A stretch of 64,000 nt of DNA, taken from the NCBI GenBank assembly GCA_035548375.1, contig DASZTG010000021.1, positions 138,646 through 202,645 of the forward strand. Direction: 5' to 3'. Positions 1,146 through 63,859 of the stretch are shown piece by piece. The translations under genes and the position numbers were made by a program. Each line of letters opens with the position of its first letter. Within the stretch, counting starts at the first letter, position 1. This stretch comes from Burkholderiales bacterium (GTDB lineage Bacteria > Pseudomonadota > Gammaproteobacteria > Burkholderiales > JACQAP01). Under the pieces are notes generated by a model. The model searched no databases and had not been told where the DNA came from. It saw only the letters and a list, made by a program, of their open reading frames with translations.

Positions 1146-1190
1146 ATTTTTGTTCTCACTCCCGGGATAAGACCTACGACCTAAGGACAC

Positions 1191-1231
1191 CACCCAACGC
1201 AGAGGCGCAGAGGACGCAAAGGACGCAAAGC
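1191..1231. repeat. Cassette 1: solo arm of the CRCRRAGRR inverted-repeat family
   Basis: cacccaacgcagaggcgcagaggacgcaaaggacgcaaagc has the same terminus (CACCCAACGCA) and 9-nt units as the arms at 16985, 19362, 33399 and 35656. No partner arm was found up to 2168. Confidence 0.7.
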
Positions 1232-1456: not shown

Positions 1457-2014
1457 ATGAACGCGATCGATCCGCATCACTTTGATTCCATTCTTCGAGC
1501 CGTGCTCCAGGAGAGGCAAGCGATCGTATCCACTCATTGGAACGGCGCGCTCACACCCTTTACAACGCTTATGAAAACTGTGGTCCTGCCCGAAGTCGGT
1601 AGACGCCTTGGGCTTATACCTCATCCCTCCGAATACTATTCACTGGACTGTATCTATTTATCAGAGTACGACACAGAGCATTTTGGATCTGAGTCCGGGT
1701 ATCCGAAAGCATTCTCAGTAATCATCGAGCACGAAAACAATTCCAAGCAGTCTTGCGAAGAAATGAGCAAACTCCTCCTATTCAATTCGCCCTTGAAGGT
1801 GCTCATTACATATGCGCGCGCCGGGGAGGATCTGGAGGATCTTTTGGCGCGCTACGGCAAAATGATTGAAAACAGTGGAACAGCTGCGCTTGCCGTGAGC
1901 TCACAGAGAATTCTCGTCGTATTCGGCGATAATCCCGCAGGCAGTCCAACTTGGCGCTCGTACCTATACAATTACAGCGGCTTCATCGAGATTTCACCGC
2001 ATCTTCTCAAATAA
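1457..2014 (+). CDS. Hypothetical protein (185 aa) in a low-GC island
   Basis: Only long ORF in the visibly AT-richer stretch 1232-2168. No family recognised. The strand pattern LDCIYLSE / SVIIEHENNSK / KVLITYA / ILVVFGD could be a PD-(D/E)XK-like core, which is weak inference. Confidence 0.5.
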   Translation: MNAIDPHHFDSILRAVLQERQAIVSTHWNGALTPFTTLMKTVVLPEVGRRLGLIPHPSEYYSLDCIYLSEYDTEHFGSESGYPKAFSVIIEHENNSKQSCEEMSKLLLFNSPLKVLITYARAGEDLEDLLARYGKMIENSGTAALAVSSQRILVVFGDNPAGSPTWRSYLYNYSGFIEISPHLLK

Positions 2015-2168: not shown

Positions 2169-3407
2169 ATGAGAATAACTAAAACGCTGCGAGCCCTGCT
2201 CGTCGTGGCCGCCTGTACATGCGCATCCCTCTGTGCTGCACAAGAGCCCATCAAGATCGCTCTTCTGGAACCGCTGAGCGGCCCCTTCGGTCTCGTCGGC
2301 GAAAGCATCAGCCGGCACATGCAGGCCGCGGTGGACGAGGTGAACGAGCACGGCGGCGTATTGGGCGGGACGAAGCTCGAGCTCATGCGCATGGACGACA
2401 AGCTCAGCCCGCAGGAGGGCGTGCTGCTGCTGAAGCATGCGATCGATGAGAAGGTGCGCATCGTCACGCTGGCTTCCGGCTCCAACATCGCGCACGCGCT
2501 GATCGAATCGATCGCCAAGCACAACGCCCGCAATCCGTCGGAGTCGGTGCTGTTCCTGAATTTCGGCGCGATGGACCCGGCGCTCACCAACGAGAAGTGC
2601 AACTTCTGGCATTTCCGCTTCGAGCCGAATACCGACATGAAGCTGAATGCCTTGACGGCTTACATGGCACACCAGCGGAAAATCCACGAGGTGTACTTGC
2701 TGAACGAGGACTTCGCCTACGGCCAGGCCATCAGCCGCGGGGCGAAGGAGCAACTGGCGCAGCGTCGCCCGGACGTCAAGATCGTCGGCGATGACCTGCA
2801 TCCTCTGCTCAAGGTGAAGGATTTCTCGCCCTATGTCGCGAAGGTCAAGGCGTCCGGCGCGGATTCACTGGTCACGGGAAATGGCGGGCCGGACATTTAC
2901 CTGCTGGTGAAGGCGGGCAAGGACGCGGGCCTCGACATCAATTACTACACGCTCAACGCCCATACCATCGGCGTTGCCGCTGCCATCGGCGGGGCGGGGG
3001 CCGACCGCATCAACCAGGTCCTGGCCTGGCACTCGAATGTTTCGCCCAACAAGCTGGAAGAGACCGCCGCCCGCTACAAGAAGCGCTTCAACGAGGATTA
3101 CTGGTACTACACGGCGAAGGTCGAGGTGGACATGCTGGTGAAGGCGATCAACCAGGCGCAGTCTGCGGATTCGCTCAAGATCGCGAAGGCGCTCGAAGGC
3201 CTGCGCATGCAAGGCGATACGGGCGAGCTGTGGATGCGAGCGGAGGACCATCAACTCGTGCAGCCTCTTTACGTGGCCACGTACAGGAAGGTGACGCCGC
3301 CGGCACACGACGTGGAAGGCATCGGATACGGCTGGCAGACCGATACCCGCATGGAAGGAAATGACACTGCCGTGCCGACCACCTGCAAGATGGAGCGGCC
3401 GGAATAG
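2169..3407 (+). CDS. Periplasmic substrate-binding protein, LivK/Peripla_BP_6 type (branched-chain amino acid/amide family), orphan
   Basis: Signal peptide MRITKTLRALLVVAACTCASLCAAQEP. IKIALLEPLSGPFG... and the length are typical of the Leu/Ile/Val-binding family. No adjacent permease genes. Confidence 0.8.
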   Translation: MRITKTLRALLVVAACTCASLCAAQEPIKIALLEPLSGPFGLVGESISRHMQAAVDEVNEHGGVLGGTKLELMRMDDKLSPQEGVLLLKHAIDEKVRIVTLASGSNIAHALIESIAKHNARNPSESVLFLNFGAMDPALTNEKCNFWHFRFEPNTDMKLNALTAYMAHQRKIHEVYLLNEDFAYGQAISRGAKEQLAQRRPDVKIVGDDLHPLLKVKDFSPYVAKVKASGADSLVTGNGGPDIYLLVKAGKDAGLDINYYTLNAHTIGVAAAIGGAGADRINQVLAWHSNVSPNKLEETAARYKKRFNEDYWYYTAKVEVDMLVKAINQAQSADSLKIAKALEGLRMQGDTGELWMRAEDHQLVQPLYVATYRKVTPPAHDVEGIGYGWQTDTRMEGNDTAVPTTCKMERPE

Positions 3408-15714: not shown

Positions 15715-15737
15715 CGACTAGAGCTCTCGATCATAAA

Positions 15738-15920
15738 TCTCATCACGAAGACACGAAGGGCACGAAGAAATGCAAATGCGACAATGTTGAAAATTGTTTT
15801 CATTCCAGGTGAGCAATCGGACATCGCAACGTCTTGAGTAGACCTACGGTGATTTCGTGCGAGTTCTTTTTTTTGACCTTCTTCGTGTTTCTTTGTGTCC
15901 TTCGTGTCTTTGTGATGAGA
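15738..15920. repeat. Cassette 2: inverted-repeat cassette, CACGAAG flavour
   Basis: The left arm is tctcatcacgaagacacgaagggcacgaagaaa. The reverse complement of the right arm (15877-15920) begins tctcatcacaaagacacgaaggacacaaagaaa, matching at 30/33. The spacer is 106 bp. Confidence 0.85.
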
Positions 15921-15921
15921 A

Positions 15922-16977
15922 TTAGATGGCTGTGGGTATTGCGACGCCGAGTTTTTCGCTCCACGGCTGCAGCGCTGGCAGGATGCCGGGATACAGTTCC
16001 ACGCCGTCTTTCAATTGCTTCTCGCGTCGGCGCAATCCGGATTCGCCGGGCAGGCGTACGCGATCGAAGCCCGGGCGCGGCGGGGTGTTGCGGCATGCGT
16101 TCGCGATCCATTCGGTCTGGCGCACGAAGTCGTCCTCGCCGCCGAACAGCCGCGGATCGAACACCTGGACGTAGACGTTCGCGGCCCAGCCTTCATTCGG
16201 ATCTGCGCGCCCGTGACCGGACAGGCCCTGCGTCAATGCTTCGACCAGCAGGCCGAGCGAGTAACCCTTGTGGCCGTGGTCGAGTCCGCCGATCGGCAGC
16301 AGTCCGCCCTTGGGCTCATTGAACACGACGGCGGGATCGTCGGACGGATTGCCGTGGCCGTCGAGCACCCACTGGCCCGGCAGCTTGCGCTTCTCGCGAT
16401 TCAGGCGGCCGGTGAGGCCGTGCGTCGTGATCGACATGGACACGTCGATGATGACCGGGTCGCCCTTCGTCGGCCACGCCGCGGCGATCGGATTCGGCGT
16501 GTGCGTGCCGGTGCCCTTGCCGCCGTGGGGTACCACGCCGCCGACTTCCGGACCGGACGAGATCAGCATCACCATCATGCCCTGGTCCGTGACTTTCTTG
16601 AGGTAGGCCGCGAGGCAGGCGATGTGATGGCTGCGACGGATCGTCACCGTGCAGGTGCCAAGTGTCTTTGCGCGTTCCAGCGCGAGGTCGATCGCCGTTG
16701 CGGTCAGCCACACGCCGGGAAGACGCATCCCGTCCCAGGTCACCGCCGCGGGAAAATCCGCGATCACGCGCGGACTGCCCGACTTCGCCATGCCGCCTTT
16801 TTCGAGGTCGTTCAGATAGGGCGCCAGCAACTGCAGGCCATGTGTCGTGTGGCCGAGCAGGTCGCCCTCCACGAGAACCTCCGCGACGACTTTGGATTTG
16901 TCATGATCGAGCCCGGCCTTGTCGAGCAGGGCCGTCGCGTAGGTGATCAGTTCGGATGATTTGTATTTATCGGACAT
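15922..16977 (-). CDS. Ldh_2-family (malate/L-lactate/sulfolactate type) NAD(P)H-dependent dehydrogenase
   Basis: 351 aa. GDLLGHTTHGL and the overall layout fit the family. Confidence 0.8.
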   Translation of the reverse strand: MSDKYKSSELITYATALLDKAGLDHDKSKVVAEVLVEGDLLGHTTHGLQLLAPYLNDLEKGGMAKSGSPRVIADFPAAVTWDGMRLPGVWLTATAIDLALERAKTLGTCTVTIRRSHHIACLAAYLKKVTDQGMMVMLISSGPEVGGVVPHGGKGTGTHTPNPIAAAWPTKGDPVIIDVSMSITTHGLTGRLNREKRKLPGQWVLDGHGNPSDDPAVVFNEPKGGLLPIGGLDHGHKGYSLGLLVEALTQGLSGHGRADPNEGWAANVYVQVFDPRLFGGEDDFVRQTEWIANACRNTPPRPGFDRVRLPGESGLRRREKQLKDGVELYPGILPALQPWSEKLGVAIPTAI

Positions 16978-16984
16978 AGGTCAA

Positions 16985-17172
16985 AACCCAACGCAGAGAC
17001 GCAGAGGAAAAAGAGTTCGCAGAGGAAACGGAATGAACTAGAGGGGTATGGATTATGACCTGGATATCATCGCGCCTTCCCTCTTGAACATCGTCGAGCG
17101 TTCTGACTGGATCCTCCAACTGCTATTACTCTGTGTTCCTCCGTTATTCTCTGCGCCTCTGCGTTGGGTGTA
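16985..17172. repeat. Cassette 3: inverted-repeat cassette, CGCAGAG flavour
   Basis: The left arm is aacccaacgcagagacgcagaggaaaaag... The reverse complement of the right arm (17129-17172) is tacacccaacgcagaggcgcagagaataacgg... The first roughly 25 nt match and the inner parts diverge. Confidence 0.8.
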
Positions 17173-18331: not shown

Positions 18332-18500
18332 AATCGGAACCACGGAGAACACGGAGTAAACGGAGAGAAAAGAGATGGGGAAAGAATGGTGTGGCGCGCT
18401 CTTCAAAATCGATCGCCTGCACGGATCGATTCCTGTGCAACAACTCCTTCCGCTTTATGTTTTCTCCGTGCCCTCCGTGATCTCCGTGGTTCCGGATTGG
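18332..18500. repeat. Cassette 4: inverted-repeat cassette, CACGGAG flavour
   Basis: The left arm is aatcggaaccacggagaacacggagtaaacggagagaaaag. The reverse complement of the right arm (18460-18500) is ccaatccggaaccacggagatcacggagggcacggagaaaa. Confidence 0.85.
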
Positions 18501-19361: not shown

Positions 19362-19557
19362 GTACACCCAACGCAAAGGCGCAAAGGACGCGAAGAACGC
19401 AAAGGAAATCAATGGAATTGAAGTGGCGGCAAGCCGATCTTGCCGCTGCGAAATTTGCCAATGTTGTGGGCTTCATTCGAAGCGATTCGTTTCCCCTCCT
19501 TGACTTCGCGTTTCTTTGCGAACTCTGCGTCCTTTGCGCCTTTGCGTTGAGGTGTAT
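19362..19557. repeat. Cassette 5: inverted-repeat cassette, CGCAAAG flavour
   Basis: The left arm is gtacacccaacgcaaaggcgcaaaggacgcgaagaacgcaaaggaaa. The reverse complement of the right arm (19504-19557) is atacacctcaacgcaaaggcgcaaaggacgcagagttcgcaaagaaacgcgaag. Confidence 0.85.
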
Positions 19558-32230: not shown

Positions 32231-33391
32231 TCACGCGGCGATGGCGGACGGTCGAGAATGGCGCAGCGAGCGCGCGAGATCGGTCAGGCTGTCGATGTTG
32301 TGGGCCGGCAGGAAAGCGTCGACATGCGGCAACATCAGTTTCACGCCCGCGGCTTTCGGCTCGAAATCCTCGAAGCGCAGCAGCGGATTCAGCCAGATCA
32401 ACTGGTGGCACGACTTGTGAAGGCGTTCGATCTGCTTGCCGAGGTCGTCGCCAGGATCGCGGTCCAGCCCGTCGCTGATCAGCATGACCACGGCGTTCTG
32501 GCCGAGCACGCGGCGCGACCAGCGCTGGTTGAATTCCTTCAGGGTGGCGCCGATGCGAGTGCCGCCCGACCAGTCCTCGACCAGTCCCGATACCGCGTTG
32601 AGCGCGACATCGACGTCGCGATGCCGCAGTTGCCGCGTGATGTTGGTGAGTCGCGTGCCGAACACGAAGCTCTGCACGCGGTCGCGATCGTTCGTGATCG
32701 CGTGCAGGAAGTGCAGGAACATGCGCGAATAACGGCTCATCGAGCCGGAGATGTCGCACAGCACGACGAGCGGCGGATGCAGCTTGCGCACGGAACGCCG
32801 GCGCAGCGGAATGACGTCGGCGTTGCCCCGCAGGCTTGCACGCAAGGTCGCACGCAGGTCGACGTGCCTTCCCCGGGCGTCCGGATGCAATCGCCGCGTC
32901 GCCACCTCGGGGATTGGCAGCCGCAGTCCGGCGATGAGCTTCTTCGCCTCGGCGAGTTCTTCCGACGTCATGGTTTCGAAGTCCTTGCGCTGCAATTTTT
33001 CCAGGTCGGACGCGCTCAACAGGACCTCGGGTTCCTCGTCCTGGTAGCCGGCCTTCATCGGCATTTTCCGCGTGAGGCCGAGCGCCTCCGCGATGCGGTT
33101 CGGTGCCTTGTTCGGATCGGTTTTCATGCCGGTGGCGGACGGCAGGGCGGGCATCGCCTGTTCCAGCAGGTGGCGCTCGCGCCAGAACAGTTTGAACGCC
33201 TGGTCGAATAGTTCGAAATGTTCGCGACGCGAGAGGAATACCGACGCCAGCGTCCAGTAAAAATCCTCGCGTCGCTCGATGCCGGCGATCTGCAGCGCGC
33301 GCAGGCCGTCGAGCACGCGATCGGGACCGACGGTAATGCCGGCGCGGCGCAGCGCGCGGGCAAAATGGGCGATGTTTTCAGCGAGCTTCAT
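32231..33391 (-). CDS. coxE: vWA-domain protein, CoxE-like maturation factor
   Basis: MKLAENIAHFARALRRAGI... is a CoxE-type N-terminus. MIDAS motif VVLCDISGSMSRY. Confidence 0.85.
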   Translation of the reverse strand: MKLAENIAHFARALRRAGITVGPDRVLDGLRALQIAGIERREDFYWTLASVFLSRREHFELFDQAFKLFWRERHLLEQAMPALPSATGMKTDPNKAPNRIAEALGLTRKMPMKAGYQDEEPEVLLSASDLEKLQRKDFETMTSEELAEAKKLIAGLRLPIPEVATRRLHPDARGRHVDLRATLRASLRGNADVIPLRRRSVRKLHPPLVVLCDISGSMSRYSRMFLHFLHAITNDRDRVQSFVFGTRLTNITRQLRHRDVDVALNAVSGLVEDWSGGTRIGATLKEFNQRWSRRVLGQNAVVMLISDGLDRDPGDDLGKQIERLHKSCHQLIWLNPLLRFEDFEPKAAGVKLMLPHVDAFLPAHNIDSLTDLARSLRHSRPSAIAA

Positions 33392-33831
33392 CTAGTGCCT
33401 ACACCCGACGCAAAGGCGCAAAGAACGCAAAGGTCGCGAAGAAGGACAACAAGTTGGAGATTGTTAACGACACGCTTGATAGATTGACGCAGAACGGCAG
33501 AGTTGAAGTTGATCAGTAGTCCAAGCTTCTTATCGGAAAGGCGCAGATAACTCAGGAGCTGGGCTTCATGAACTGGAAGAACATGCTCGATCGATTTGAC
33601 TTCGACGATCAGCATGTCGTTTACCAGTATATCCAGACGCAAACTACCTTCCAGCCGCTGACCCTTGTAGATAACCTCGACTTCCGCTTGCCGGGTTACC
33701 GCGAGCCCTCTCGATTTCAGTTCGATCGCAAGAGCTTCTTCGTAGAGGAATTCCAGAAGACCGGGGCCAAGCTCTTTGTGCACTTCGATCGCCGCGCCGA
33801 TAACTTCATGGGATAGGGCATTTTCATCCAT
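33388..33831 (-). CDS. GxxExxY protein (PD-(D/E)XK nuclease-fold, PDDEXK_3-like)
   Basis: GLLEFLY is the GxxExxY motif. RLDILVND...IVEVKS is a D...ExK core. The last roughly 20 codons (LLRDLCVLCAFASGVGTR) are the translated repeat arm. Its stop overlaps the coxE start (ATGA). Confidence 0.85.
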   Translation of the reverse strand: MDENALSHEVIGAAIEVHKELGPGLLEFLYEEALAIELKSRGLAVTRQAEVEVIYKGQRLEGSLRLDILVNDMLIVEVKSIEHVLPVHEAQLLSYLRLSDKKLGLLINFNSAVLRQSIKRVVNNLQLVVLLRDLCVLCAFASGVGTR

Positions 33832-33932
33832 CCGCGTTCCCCCAAAGCTCCGATGGCACTGGCGCGCCCCGTCGTCTCGCTGGCTTTCCTTTGCGACCTT
33901 TGCGTTCTTTGCGCCTTTGCGTTGGGTGTAGA
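33399..33932. mobile_element. Cassette 6: full-length inverted-repeat cassette carrying a GxxExxY ORF
   Basis: The left arm is ctacacccgacgcaaaggcgcaaagaacgcaaaggtcgcgaagaagg. The reverse complement of the right arm (33885-33932) is ctacacccaacgcaaaggcgcaaagaacgcaaaggtcgcaaaggaaag, about 44/47 identical. The arms bracket a 439-bp lower-GC insert between coxD and coxE. Confidence 0.8.
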
Positions 33933-33941
33933 CGCCAGGTA

Positions 33942-34862
33942 CTAACGATTGGCGATTTCTTCGAGTATTCTTGCCGCTTGAGTTCCGCGGACGGCGGCGA
34001 TGTCGTCCTGGTACTTGAGCAGGACGCCGAGGGTGTCGTCGACGACGCCGGGGTCCAGGGACCGGCGATCCAGTTCCAGCAGCGCACGGGCCCAGTCGAT
34101 CGTCTCGGCCACCCCGGGTTTCTTGAAGAGCTCGGAGGCGCGCAGCTTCTGCACGAAGGCGACGATTTCGCCGGAGAGTTTTTCCGCGATGCCGGGAACC
34201 TTGCGGCGGACGATCTCGAGTTCGGCACTCGCCGCCGGATAGTCCACCCAGTGATAGAGGCAGCGGCGCTTGACCGCGTCGTGAATTTCACGCGTCCGAT
34301 TGGACGTGATGACGACGATGGGCGGGCGCTGCGCCTCGATCGTGCCGATCTCGGGAATGGTGACCTGGAAGTCGGCCAGCACTTCCAGCAGATAGGCCTC
34401 GAACGGCTCGTCGGTGCGATCGAGCTCGTCGATCAGCAGCACCGGCGCCAGGCCGTCGGCCGAATCCATTGCCTGCAGCAACGGGCGGCGAATCAGGAAG
34501 CGTTCGTCGAAGATGTCCTTTTCGAGTTTTTCCCGTGCTCCCGCGCCTGCGGCTTCGGCCATGCGGATCTCGATCATCTGCCGCTGGTAGTTCCACTCAT
34601 ACACCGCCGAGGCGACGTCGAGTCCCTCGTAGCACTGCAGGCGGATCAGGCGACGGCCGAGGACCTGCGCCAGAACCTTGGCGATTTCGGTCTTGCCGAC
34701 GCCCGCTTCGCCCTCGAGGAACAAGGGCCGCTGCATGCGCAACGCCAGGAACACGGCGGTTGCGAGCGATCGTTCGGCGACATATTCGCCGGATGCAAGC
34801 AGCGCCAGCGTCGCGTCTATGGATTCCGGAACCTCACTTGCCAAGGGCCTGCTCCACGGCAC
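33942..34862 (-). CDS. coxD: MoxR-type AAA+ ATPase, CoxD-like
   Basis: Walker A GEAGVGKT and Walker B LLIDELDR. The start is uncertain (GTG 34862 or TTG 34845); both overlap the coxM 3' end. Confidence 0.85.
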   Translation of the reverse strand: MPWSRPLASEVPESIDATLALLASGEYVAERSLATAVFLALRMQRPLFLEGEAGVGKTEIAKVLAQVLGRRLIRLQCYEGLDVASAVYEWNYQRQMIEIRMAEAAGAGAREKLEKDIFDERFLIRRPLLQAMDSADGLAPVLLIDELDRTDEPFEAYLLEVLADFQVTIPEIGTIEAQRPPIVVITSNRTREIHDAVKRRCLYHWVDYPAASAELEIVRRKVPGIAEKLSGEIVAFVQKLRASELFKKPGVAETIDWARALLELDRRSLDPGVVDDTLGVLLKYQDDIAAVRGTQAARILEEIANR

Positions 34863-35655: not shown

Positions 35656-35845
35656 TTACACCCAACGCAAAGGCGCAAAGGACGCAAAGAAAGACGAAAA
35701 ACATTCTGGATAAATGAGCCCAAGCATGGCTTGCCATGCCGGGAAGTCATCCTTGGATTGCGAGTGCCACCGAATGGATTCGTTTTCTGATTCATTCTTG
35801 CTTGGCGTTTCCTTTGCGTTCTTTGCGCCTTTGCGTTGGACGTGG
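35656..35845. repeat. Cassette 7: inverted-repeat cassette, CGCAAAG flavour, between coxS and coxM
   Basis: The left arm is ttacacccaacgcaaaggcgcaaaggacgcaaagaaagacg. The reverse complement of the right arm (35805-35845) is ccacgtccaacgcaaaggcgcaaagaacgcaaaggaaacgc. The spacer is 103 bp. Confidence 0.85.
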
Positions 35846-40458: not shown

Positions 40459-41766
40459 TCAGGCCTTCGGGCGCCTGTCGATCACGCGCACGGCCTTGCC
40501 CTGGGAGCGCGGCAGCGTGTCAGGCTCGACAACCCTGACCTTCGTGCTCACGCCGATCAACCCCTTGATCAATCGTTCCACGTCGCGTTCGGCGCTTTCG
40601 CGGGCGGCCGCTGCGAGCGGTCCGGGAATATCTGTGCGCCGTTCCACCAGGACGTCGAGTTCGTCCATGTTGCCGTCTCGCCTGACCTCGAGCACATAGT
40701 GCGGCGACAGCGCCGGCTGCTTCACGAGGATTTCCTCGACCTGCGACGGAAAAACGTTGACGCCGCGAATGATCAGCATGTCGTCGCTGCGCCCCGTGAC
40801 GCGCGCCATGCGGCGCATCGTGCGCGCGCTGCCGGGCAGCAGGCGGGTGAGGTCGCGGGTACGGTAGCGGATGACCGGCATGCCGACCTTGGTCAGCGAG
40901 GTGAACACCAGTTCCCCGGTTTGCCCATCGGGCAATACCTCGCCCGACGCAGGATCGATGATCTCGGGGTAGAAATGGTCTTCCCAGATGGTTAAGCCGT
41001 CGTGCGTCTCGATGCATTCGGCAGCCACGCCCGGGCCGATGACTTCCGACAGGCCGTACAGGTCGAGCGCGGTGATGCCGAAGCGCTTTTCCAGTTGCGC
41101 CTGCATGCTTTCCGACCAGGGTTCCGCGCCGAAGATACCCACGCGCGGCGAGGACTTCGCCGGATCCAGCCCTTGCCGCTCGAACTCATCCGCGATCACC
41201 AGCAGGTAGGACGGCGTGCACATGATCACATCAGGCCTGAAATCGCAGATCAGCCTGACCTGGCGCTCGGTCATGCCGCCTCCGGAAGGGATGACCGTGG
41301 CCCCGAGCGCTTCGGCGCCGTAATGCGCGCCCAGGCCGCCGGTAAACAATCCGTAGCCGTAGGCGATGTGCACGATGTCTGTCGACCGGACGCCGCCCGC
41401 GCGCAGCGAACGCGCCATCAGTCCGGACCACATTTCGATGTCCTGCTTCGTGTAGCCGACGACCGTGGCTTTTCCCGTCGTGCCGCTGGAGGCGTGCACG
41501 CGCACGATGTCGCTCATCGGCGCGGCGAACATGCCGAAAGGGTAGTTTTCGCGGAGTTCGGCCTTGGTCGTGAAAGGGAAGCGCGAGAGGTCCGAGAGTT
41601 GCCGCAGTTGCGCCGGATTCACGCCGGCGGCGTCGAATGCGCGGCGATAGTGCGGCACGTTCTCGTAGGCGTGGCGCAGGCTCCAGCGCAGCCTGTCGAG
41701 TTGCAGCGCGCGAAGCTCGGCTATCCCGGCCTTCTCGATGGGCTCGAGCCGGTCCATCGCTCCCAT
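40459..41766 (-). CDS. Phenylacetate-CoA ligase family protein (PaaK-like)
   Basis: GGAGG then ATG 41766. SSGTTGKATVV P-loop and the characteristic MDRLEPIEKAGIAELRALQL...FPFTTKAELRENYPFGMFA N-terminus. The upstream 301 codons of track ORF 40459..42669 are a frame artefact over the next gene. Confidence 0.85.
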   Translation of the reverse strand: MGAMDRLEPIEKAGIAELRALQLDRLRWSLRHAYENVPHYRRAFDAAGVNPAQLRQLSDLSRFPFTTKAELRENYPFGMFAAPMSDIVRVHASSGTTGKATVVGYTKQDIEMWSGLMARSLRAGGVRSTDIVHIAYGYGLFTGGLGAHYGAEALGATVIPSGGGMTERQVRLICDFRPDVIMCTPSYLLVIADEFERQGLDPAKSSPRVGIFGAEPWSESMQAQLEKRFGITALDLYGLSEVIGPGVAAECIETHDGLTIWEDHFYPEIIDPASGEVLPDGQTGELVFTSLTKVGMPVIRYRTRDLTRLLPGSARTMRRMARVTGRSDDMLIIRGVNVFPSQVEEILVKQPALSPHYVLEVRRDGNMDELDVLVERRTDIPGPLAAAARESAERDVERLIKGLIGVSTKVRVVEPDTLPRSQGKAVRVIDRRPKA

Positions 41767-63508: not shown

Positions 63509-63859
63509 ATGGCTGCAAAGAAAAAAGCTGCAAAGAAGACCGCGAAGAAAAAGACCGCGAAGAAGGCCGCGAAGAAGCCTGCGAAAAAGGCTGCGAAGAA
63601 GCCCGCGAAAAAGGCGGCGAAAAAGCCTGCTAAAAAGGCCGCGAAGCGGCCGGCCAAGAAAAAGGCCGCGAAGAAGAAGGCCAAGAAGCCGGCCAAGAAA
63701 AAGGCGAAGAAGGCTGCGAAAAAGAAGCCTGCCAAAAAGAAGGCGGCCAAAAAGAAGCCTGCGTCCAAGCCGGTTGCGATGAGCGCACCGGCGGCGCCGA
63801 AGCCTGTTTCAGCACCGGCGGCCTGGCCGTTTCCGGTAGCCGGCAACCGGCCTAACTAA
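63509..63859 (+). CDS. Histone H1-like Lys/Ala-rich nucleoid protein
   Basis: AGGAGA then ATG. MAAKKKAAKKTAKKKTAKKAAKKPAKKAAKKPAKK... with a non-repetitive Pro/Ala tail. Confidence 0.75.
   Translation: MAAKKKAAKKTAKKKTAKKAAKKPAKKAAKKPAKKAAKKPAKKAAKRPAKKKAAKKKAKKPAKKKAKKAAKKKPAKKKAAKKKPASKPVAMSAPAAPKPVSAPAAWPFPVAGNRPN
63563..63660 (+). repeat. In-frame 24-bp tandem repeat (AAKKPAKK)n inside the H1-like gene
   Basis: The unit gccgcgaagaagcctgcgaaaaag is repeated about 4 times with synonymous variation. Confidence 0.7.

Follow-up and report, generated by a model that had tools for sequence, protein, structure and literature searches.

The window analysed here, a stretch of 64,000 nucleotides (nt) from a Burkholderiales bacterium (contig DASZTG010000021.1), is shown to carry a resident "foldback cassette", a promoterless gene of the GxxExxY nuclease family enclosed by two inverted arms within the accessory part of a cox operon, between coxD and coxE. 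Arms of the same construction enclose genes of this family in several phyla, and further hairpins with such arms, lacking the open reading frame (ORF), are found in the window. We tentatively propose, at slightly less than an even chance, that the nuclease is the sequence-specific partner of these octamer-repeat hairpins, in a pairing that would resemble REPIN-RAYT systems but employ a different enzyme.

A nuclease-family gene between inverted arms

The two arms (33392-33441 and 33889-33938) are 50 nt long each, complementary at 45 of the 50 positions (90%), and separated by a gap of 447 nt. A first-pass annotation of this DNA had described near-identical inverted arms bracketing an insert of lower guanine-cytosine (GC) content between coxD and coxE, and both parts of this description hold, the GC fraction being 0.48-0.58 within the insert as opposed to 0.62-0.66 in the flanks. 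The enclosed ORF (33388..33831, minus strand) encodes 147 amino acids (aa) and is oriented as its cox neighbours, which share their cluster with CoxS-, CoxM- and CoxL-like genes of a carbon monoxide (CO) dehydrogenase-type operon. Its stop codon TGA (33388-33390) overlaps the start codon ATG of coxE (33389-33391), giving ATGA on the minus strand. Since the outer end of the 3' arm touches this start codon, the ribosome-binding region of coxE comes to lie inside the stem. No promoter-like site was found for the cassette and terminator-like sites occur at chance level; in the absence of such a promoter site, the cassette would be expressed by read-through from the host operon.

The ORF product matches TIGR04256 (GxxExxY) with 146.1 bits (cut-off 35) and PF13366 (PDDEXK_3) with 140.8 bits (cut-off 22), in both cases well above the cut-off and over the full model length. 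An alignment of 45 homologous sequences shows no variation at G24, E27, Y30, D67, E77, H88, Q91 and Y95, while K79 is conserved in at least 90%. The GxxExxY motif and the D...EVK nuclease core that had been read from the translation are thus confirmed (G24/E27/Y30, D67, E77-x-K79, Q91xxxY95), and, judged by sequence, the residues fit the E...D...ExK...QxxxY pattern of the Cas4/RecB/lambda-exonuclease branch of the PD-(D/E)XK fold. The AlphaFold2 model of the product has a predicted local distance difference test (pLDDT) value of 90.2, and its top structural matches in the PDB are Cas4 SSO0001, lambda exonuclease, the AdnAB nuclease domain and a splicing endonuclease, with modest template modelling (TM) scores of about 0.5; the predicted fold is Cas4- or lambda-exonuclease-like. 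A sequence search of the PDB with the product returned no relative of solved structure, PHROGs gave no match, and PADLOC gave weak Cas4-core matches only. A phage origin of the gene is unlikely, as 50,697 phage records contained a single match, in a haloarchaeal virus. The GxxExxY / PDDEXK_3 family comprises 22,119 clusters at 50% identity (E <= 1e-3).

Homologues are nearly all 125 aa long and cover 85% of the 147-aa query, which identifies residues 126-147 as an arm-encoded read-through. In the orthologues, TGA follows directly after ...VVNNL, while the window copy has CAA at this position and a further 22 codons are read across the 3' arm (...LCVLCAFASGVGTR). The first-pass annotation had already recognised that roughly the last 20 residues are encoded by the repeat and that the frame ends in an overlap with coxE, and both statements are borne out. 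A tail encoded by the arm has arisen independently in P0114 (...LLCALCALCAS...) and in an annotated gene of Sphingomonas, in which the 142-aa ORF runs through the 3' arm and stops 2 nt ahead of the ATG of fabG (L211). Proteins of 263-295 aa with two GxxExxY domains were also observed (P0121-P0134), which probably arose when ORF calls ran through stop-free arms and joined two neighbouring cassettes.

Arm architecture and occurrence across bacteria

An arm consists of three to five tandem units of 8-9 nt of the form CRCRRAG (R, purine) and a terminal ACCCAAC motif, the period of 8-9 being given by Tandem Repeats Finder (TRF). The outer end reads (T)ACACCCAAC ahead of the C-R-C-R-R-A-G units, and each arm of the cassette combines the ACCCAAC motif with four tandem CGCAAAG octamers. 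The terminal 25-mer CTACACCCRACGCAAAGGCGCAAAG has six matches in the window at three mismatches or fewer, as opposed to none in 100 shuffles; a further arm match at 40588 lies inside coding sequence and was rejected as a chance match. Across phyla, C1, C3, A6 and G7 of the unit are fixed, positions 2, 4 and 5 vary only from purine to purine, and the spacing remains 8-9 nt. Such a conserved pattern exceeds the needs of a bare stem and implies a factor that reads the sequence. Both arms carry the same majority unit in 76 of 105 distinct elements, compared with about 35 expected and a maximum of 47 in 2000 shuffles. The purine-rich arm lies on the 5' side whichever strand is read, and all elements of the window fold into long hairpins on either strand (z-scores -4.6 to -11). 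Rfam contains no family matching the arms, either in the window at the gathering threshold or in 17 loci at the E-value threshold. Two candidate functions of the arm sequence were discarded: the terminus GAGGTG as a general downstream Shine-Dalgarno sequence fits L205 but neither the window nor the CACGGAG-type arms, and the likeness of CACGGAG to a CsrA site was dropped, since CGCAAAG units contain no GGA.

For the occurrence of the arms beyond the window, 80 metagenome loci with relatives at 47-71% identity were fetched, of which 75 had enough flanking sequence for an arm test. Arms of tandem units were found within 150 nt on both sides of the gene in 53 of the 75 loci and on at least one side in 62, as opposed to none of 159 control positions; in several of the remaining loci the arms lie further out than 150 nt. 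The geometry is tight, with a typical distance of 377-393 nt from arm to arm for an ORF of 354-375 nt. Arm-enclosed GxxExxY genes occur in Beta- and Alphaproteobacteria, Bacteroidota, Gemmatimonadota and many soil metagenome contigs, and three examples are listed in Table 1. In one of these, on plasmid 1 of Gemmatirosa kalamazoonensis (L210), the GxxExxY match is split across two reading frames and possibly represents a frameshifted pseudogene. According to a heuristic gene call, the neighbouring genes are co-oriented with the ORF upstream in 44 of 53 and downstream in 41 of 51 cases.

Whether the arms are maintained as an RNA stem was addressed through their mismatches. Pairing of the arms amounts to 90.8% in 41 distinct cassettes, and the transition mismatches on the sense strand are strand-symmetric, with 36 G:U against 33 A:C (p = 0.81).

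A scan of IMG/VR for CACGGAG arms yielded 39 loci, which are mostly simple hairpins with loops of 15-200 nt, often several per contig. Apparent "cargo" that resulted from pairing the arms of neighbouring elements across host genes was spurious and was discarded. One IMG/VR contig rich in CACGGAG hairpins contains a match to the Acido-Lenti-1 RNA (L168 3218-3263, 54 bits), which suggests an acidobacterial origin of this contig. Local tandem duplications across arm boundaries were seen at two loci with cassettes: in L110 (2520-3000), a segment made up of upstream flank, left arm and the initial ~70 nt of the ORF is present in four copies with a period of 133 nt, and L126 (2200-2480) has three copies of the ORF end, the right arm and the downstream flank.

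Age of the cassette and the ORF-less elements

An exact-match look-up of the window's CoxD protein returned no entry. The nearest CoxD relatives are found in metagenome-assembled genomes of uncultured Burkholderiales and Betaproteobacteria (74-86% identity), and among them the coxD-coxE junction is polymorphic. It contains no insert in L005 and L009 (the gap in L005 is 50 nt, without arms), an ORF-less element followed by a terminator in L004, and ordinary extra genes in L006 and L007; in ~70 more distant relatives, the gap is short and without arms. The nuclease gene lies directly upstream of coxE in all eight sampled orthologues (P0003, P0016, P0031, P0034, P0070, P0091, P0119 and the window; 63-84% identity), and its own upstream neighbour varies, being coxD, coxL, an amidohydrolase gene or an IS3-family element. 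Between the window and L001, the non-synonymous divergence (dN) of the nuclease gene is 0.156 with saturated synonymous divergence (dS); the corresponding values are dN 0.174 and dS 1.21 for coxD, and dN 0.226 and dS 0.975 for coxE. From the constant linkage to coxE and the low dN with saturated dS it follows that the cassette is old, has been inherited together with coxE and is under purifying selection, so that the ORF copy is an old resident and not a fresh insertion. Within this set of relatives, the coxS|coxM and coxM|coxD junctions carry ORF-less elements in some members and not in others, and such elements are gained or lost on a shorter time-scale than the ORF cassette.

In orthologues of the CGCAAAG type the arm cores are almost invariant, and the leader, of 0-118 nt, is unalignable. 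Two further coxD-[GxxExxY]-coxE cassettes have other units, CGCAGAG/CACAGAG in L217 and CACAGAG in L218, and in each the change is present in both arms. This shows that the unit type at the coxE-linked site has shifted in both arms together across lineages. Taken with the octamer pattern and its periodicity, this concerted change points to a factor that reads the sequence and not just the stem. Other rearrangements were noted at coxE-linked sites: four successive left-type arms with the unit types CACGGAG, CACAGAG, CACGAAG and CACCAAG in L216 (640-800), followed there by an IS3-family insertion (HTH_Tnp_1 and rve; 900-2080) within the ORF-less element ahead of the coxE-linked cassette, and a 16-nt tandem duplication (GTTGGGTGTTGCCTTA, two copies) across the outer end of the 3' arm, just 5' of the coxE start, in L203 (3925-3956).

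The window contains six paired elements, one with and five without the ORF, and one lone arm, which together represent four unit types (Table 1). Between 15.7 and 19.6 kb, four consecutive intergenic gaps among ordinary metabolic genes hold one element each. The first-pass annotation had reported that the arms recur around "empty" spacers; the recurrence is found both in the window and in relatives, but the spacing given there (85-106 bp) has to be corrected to 90-132 nt. When the interiors of 20 elements from the window and relatives were compared by blastn, no matches were obtained except from ORF to ORF, and hmmsearch of six-frame translations of 49 ORF-less interiors gave no GxxExxY match. 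The ORF-less interiors are therefore unrelated to the ORF copy and to each other, so these elements have not arisen from the ORF copy by deletion.

Table 1. Features of the cassette and its neighbours, other elements of the window, and cassettes in three other genomes.
Feature	Coordinates	Strand	Units or motifs	Remarks
ORF-bearing element	33392-33938		CGCAAAG units	
5' arm (upstream in ORF sense)	33889..33938	-	terminal motif CTACACCCAAC, then four tandem units CGCAAAGG, CGCAAAGA, ACGCAAAGG, TCGCAAAG	
Leader, 5' arm to start codon	33832..33888	-	purine-rich GGGGGA ~6 nt 5' of ATG	57 nt
Conserved GxxExxY / PDDEXK_3 frame	33457..33831	-	G24-L-L-E27-F-L-Y30; D67; E77-V-K79; Q91...Y95	125 codons
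Read-through tail	33388..33456	-	...LCVLCAFASGVGTR	22 codons and stop; encoded by spacer and 3' arm
3' arm (downstream)	33392..33441	-		reverse complement of 5' arm (45/50); outer end abuts coxE start
CoxD-like AAA (MoxR-type) ATPase	33942..34862	-		upstream neighbour
CoxE (VWA_CoxE)	32231..33391	-		downstream neighbour; PF05762, 5.7e-69
ORF-less hairpin	35656..35845		CGCAAAG units	31-nt arms, 94% complementary, 116 nt apart; between coxS and coxM, same operon
ORF-less hairpin	19362..19555		CGCAAAG units	39-nt arms, 87% complementary, 103 nt apart; intergenic gap
ORF-less hairpin	18335..18494		CACGGAG units	35-nt arms, 86% complementary, 90 nt apart; between ADH and SDR genes
ORF-less hairpin	16986..17169		CGCAGAG units	26-nt arms, 88% complementary, 132 nt apart; between Ldh_2 and ADH genes
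ORF-less hairpin	15734..15924		CACGAAG/CACAAAG units	37-nt arms, 89% complementary, 117 nt apart; between EamA and Ldh_2 genes
Lone arm	1190..1230	+	CACCCAAC, then CGCAGAG/CGCAAAG units	no partner arm found
Sphingomonas parapaucimobilis NZ_CP155749.1	L211 1495-1926		CGCGAAG units	cassette between fabD and fabG, fatty-acid synthesis operon
Bacteroides finegoldii			arms begin TTCACCACAGAGG...	cassette after radA
Gemmatirosa kalamazoonensis plasmid 1	L210 1432-1874		complete CGCAGAG hairpins on both sides	GxxExxY match

Some further observations concern the window itself. The lone arm borders a low-GC stretch of ~1 kb (1190-2170), which holds an orphan ORF of 185 aa (1457..2014, plus strand) without a Pfam match, and no partner arm was found ahead of the next gene (2169..3407, periplasmic binding protein). 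The CoxD-like ORF as listed starts with GTG at 34862 and overlaps the end of the CoxM-like ORF by 29 nt (34834-34862); its true start may lie further downstream. A long tandem array with periods of 12, 15 and 24 nt (AAGAAGGCCGCG...) occupies 63518-63762, would encode a lysine/alanine-rich repeat and reaches the window end.

Mechanism, alternatives and known systems

In the mechanism that we favour, the nuclease would bind the repeated octamer units and cut or recombine the arm DNA, either as duplex inverted repeats or as snap-back hairpins of either strand. Through this action, hairpin elements would arise, spread or become homogenised and the two arms within each would remain matched, while the nuclease gene itself would stay put, be inherited vertically and depend on read-through from the host operon. 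As the native stop codon is lost in the window copy, ribosomes could traverse the 3' arm as far as the ATGA, open the stem over the ribosome-binding region of coxE and thereby couple the translation of coxE to that of the cassette. This reading is supported by the protein family and fold, the frequency of arms at the metagenome loci compared with the control positions, the tight geometry, the fixed unit pattern, the concerted change of both arms and the near-invariance of the arms in CGCAAAG-type orthologues, in which the leader is unalignable and dS saturated. Further support comes from the vertical persistence of the cassette, the variable presence of the ORF-less elements, the strand-symmetric mismatches, the co-oriented neighbours and the recurrent read-through.

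Several observations weigh against such a partnership. The simple CACGGAG hairpins from IMG/VR have no GxxExxY gene nearby, and the same kind of arms encloses other ORFs, namely one of 115 aa (L214 827-1260 and L215 9444-9877) and one of 147 aa (L186 4922-5367), both without a Pfam match, and one of 100 aa on a phage-like contig (L219 9472-9877, also L220); these ORFs and the many gene-less hairpins indicate that the arms do not belong to the nuclease alone. Four unit types occur in the window, but only one GxxExxY gene. By inspection, no direct repeat that would indicate a target-site duplication was seen at the ends of its six elements, which were taken without a closely related filled/empty pair, and no conserved insertion site was seen. 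The G:U test, which gives no support to selection for an RNA stem on the sense strand, has limited power if selection acts on overall stem stability only. Finally, no experimental paper on GxxExxY / PDDEXK_3 proteins was found in the searchable literature.

Alternatively, the arms could be landing pads, that is, host hairpins similar to repetitive extragenic palindromic (REP) sequences, recognised by another factor or serving as stabilisers or attenuators of messenger RNA (mRNA), with loops that are insertion hot spots for small genes, most often GxxExxY, possibly a homing-type endonuclease cutting vacant hairpins. Simple hairpins with loops of 15-200 nt are far commoner than cassettes, the interiors are unique, several unrelated cargos lie within the same kind of arms, and some support comes from the IS3-family element inside the hairpin element beside the cassette in L216, an arrangement similar to that of IS1397 and ISKpn1, which target REP loops. 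We nevertheless consider this unlikely, as a near-obligate and geometrically tight link of one protein family to the arms across phyla is hard to explain passively, and at one locus the type of arm unit follows the lineage of the GxxExxY gene. The classical alternative, advanced in the first-pass annotation, is an autonomous transposon whose ORF copy is the active parent, the ORF-less elements being internal-deletion derivatives mobilised in trans as miniature inverted-repeat transposable elements (MITEs). The outer arm sequence is indeed near-identical in the ORF copy and in the ORF-less copies I2 and I5, and the ORF-less copies are polymorphic among relatives. However, neither at the DNA (blastn) nor at the protein level (hmmsearch) do the interiors of the latter resemble the ORF copy or one another, no target-site duplication was seen, and the window has one ORF copy against six other elements of four unit types. 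Moreover, the ORF copy, which had been suggested as the autonomous form, has remained beside coxE over a divergence with saturated dS, inherited vertically under purifying selection and with no sign of recent mobility, and we therefore regard this explanation as very improbable.

An explanation at the RNA level, for which the first-pass annotation had drawn the analogy, has to be weighed as well. The cassette could be an element like the intervening sequences (IVS) of ribosomal RNA (rRNA), in which RNase III would cut the arm stem in the operon transcript and so release the cassette RNA or insulate it from the cox mRNA, the nuclease being selfish cargo or acting on RNA. The arms can form stems of 35-45 base pairs on either strand, the cassette and most of its relatives are co-oriented with the host genes and have no promoter-like site, the coxE start region lies inside the stem, and rRNA is documented to contain IVS that carry an ORF and have complementary ends cleaved by RNase III (PMC4990558). 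Against this, G:U does not exceed A:C on the sense strand, a stem for RNase III requires neither a cross-phylum octamer pattern nor tandem periodicity, the arms match no Rfam family, the element lies in an mRNA and not in an rRNA helix, and the documented IVS proteins are four-helix bundles instead of PD-(D/E)XK proteins (PMC4990558, PMC11270868), which makes this reading improbable in our view. The occurrence of GxxExxY proteins in IVS, put forward in the first-pass annotation, found no confirmation in these papers.

Returning to the nuclease as partner of the arms, the broader reading, possible but on balance rather doubtful, would be that CRCRRAG foldback hairpins and GxxExxY nucleases form an undescribed cross-phylum repeat-enzyme partnership, a PD-(D/E)XK counterpart of REPIN-RAYT, in which the nuclease reads the octamers, makes, spreads or homogenises hairpins at the DNA level and persists in housekeeping operons (cox, fab, radA). 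The protein family itself is already known, but no description of the arms or their sequences was found in the searchable literature (subscription literature and the notes of database curators lie outside this search), and the octamer-repeat foldback design, its cross-phylum spread and the link to ORF-less hairpins appear to be undescribed. For GxxExxY / PDDEXK_3, a very large family with no assigned function, the arms offer a concrete and testable substrate. If the reading is true, a family of more than 22,000 sequence clusters would gain a function, and the few long-lived repeat-enzyme systems of bacteria would come to include a second class of enzyme. In practical terms, the arms break metagenome assemblies and give rise to spurious protein extensions at the N- and C-terminus and to ORF calls in which two domains are fused. 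They also cover the start regions of housekeeping genes, for example coxE and fabG, with stable stems.

Among known systems, MITE-type elements such as Correia, ERIC and RIME are small intergenic inverted-repeat elements inside operons, the presence of which varies among relatives; these families have a conserved internal sequence and usually target-site duplications. The elements described here share with them the intergenic position in operons and the variable presence, but have only the arms in common. Likewise, a MITE family with an autonomous partner is comparable in that copies with and without an ORF have their terminal inverted repeats in common, but not in the internal sequence. In Drosophila Foldback (FB) transposons, short tandem subrepeats make up the terminal inverted repeats, the middle is variable and only some copies contain ORFs. 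This likeness is one of architecture only, as FB elements are eukaryotic, much longer and encode different proteins. Free-standing homing endonuclease genes are similar in that a small nuclease gene is wedged, co-oriented and without a promoter of its own, between conserved genes; however, they have no enclosing inverted repeats. The cassette copy of the window has been inherited vertically over a long time under strong purifying selection. The IVS of 23S rRNA with an ORF (Coxiella, Leptospira; S23p / 23S_rRNA_IVP) encode four-helix-bundle proteins (PMC4990558, PMC11270868). They resemble the cassette as a small ORF of unknown function within stem-forming terminal complementary sequences in a tolerated host transcript (PMC4990558). 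The cassette differs in lying between protein genes of an mRNA operon, in a window without rRNA, in its protein family and in its octamer-built arms.

REPIN-RAYT systems pair REP doublets with a REP-associated tyrosine transposase (RAYT); in them, short palindromic repeats are dispersed in intergenic DNA, the gene of the enzyme is flanked by inverted copies of them, and the RAYT gene is largely inherited vertically, long-lived and not hopping (PMC3116915; bioRxiv 10.1101/2022.05.22.493013; PMC5581495). The cassette gene is likewise flanked by its own dispersed inverted repeats. Its eight sampled orthologues occupy the same coxE-linked site, and the 64-kb window contains one copy. In contrast to the REP hairpin with GTAG, the arms here are tandem octamers and the interiors are unique to each copy, and the enzyme, for which PDDEXK_3 and GxxExxY are the only Pfam and NCBIfam matches, belongs to the PD-(D/E)XK (Cas4/RecB-like) class instead of the IS200/IS605-like HUH/Y1 transposases.

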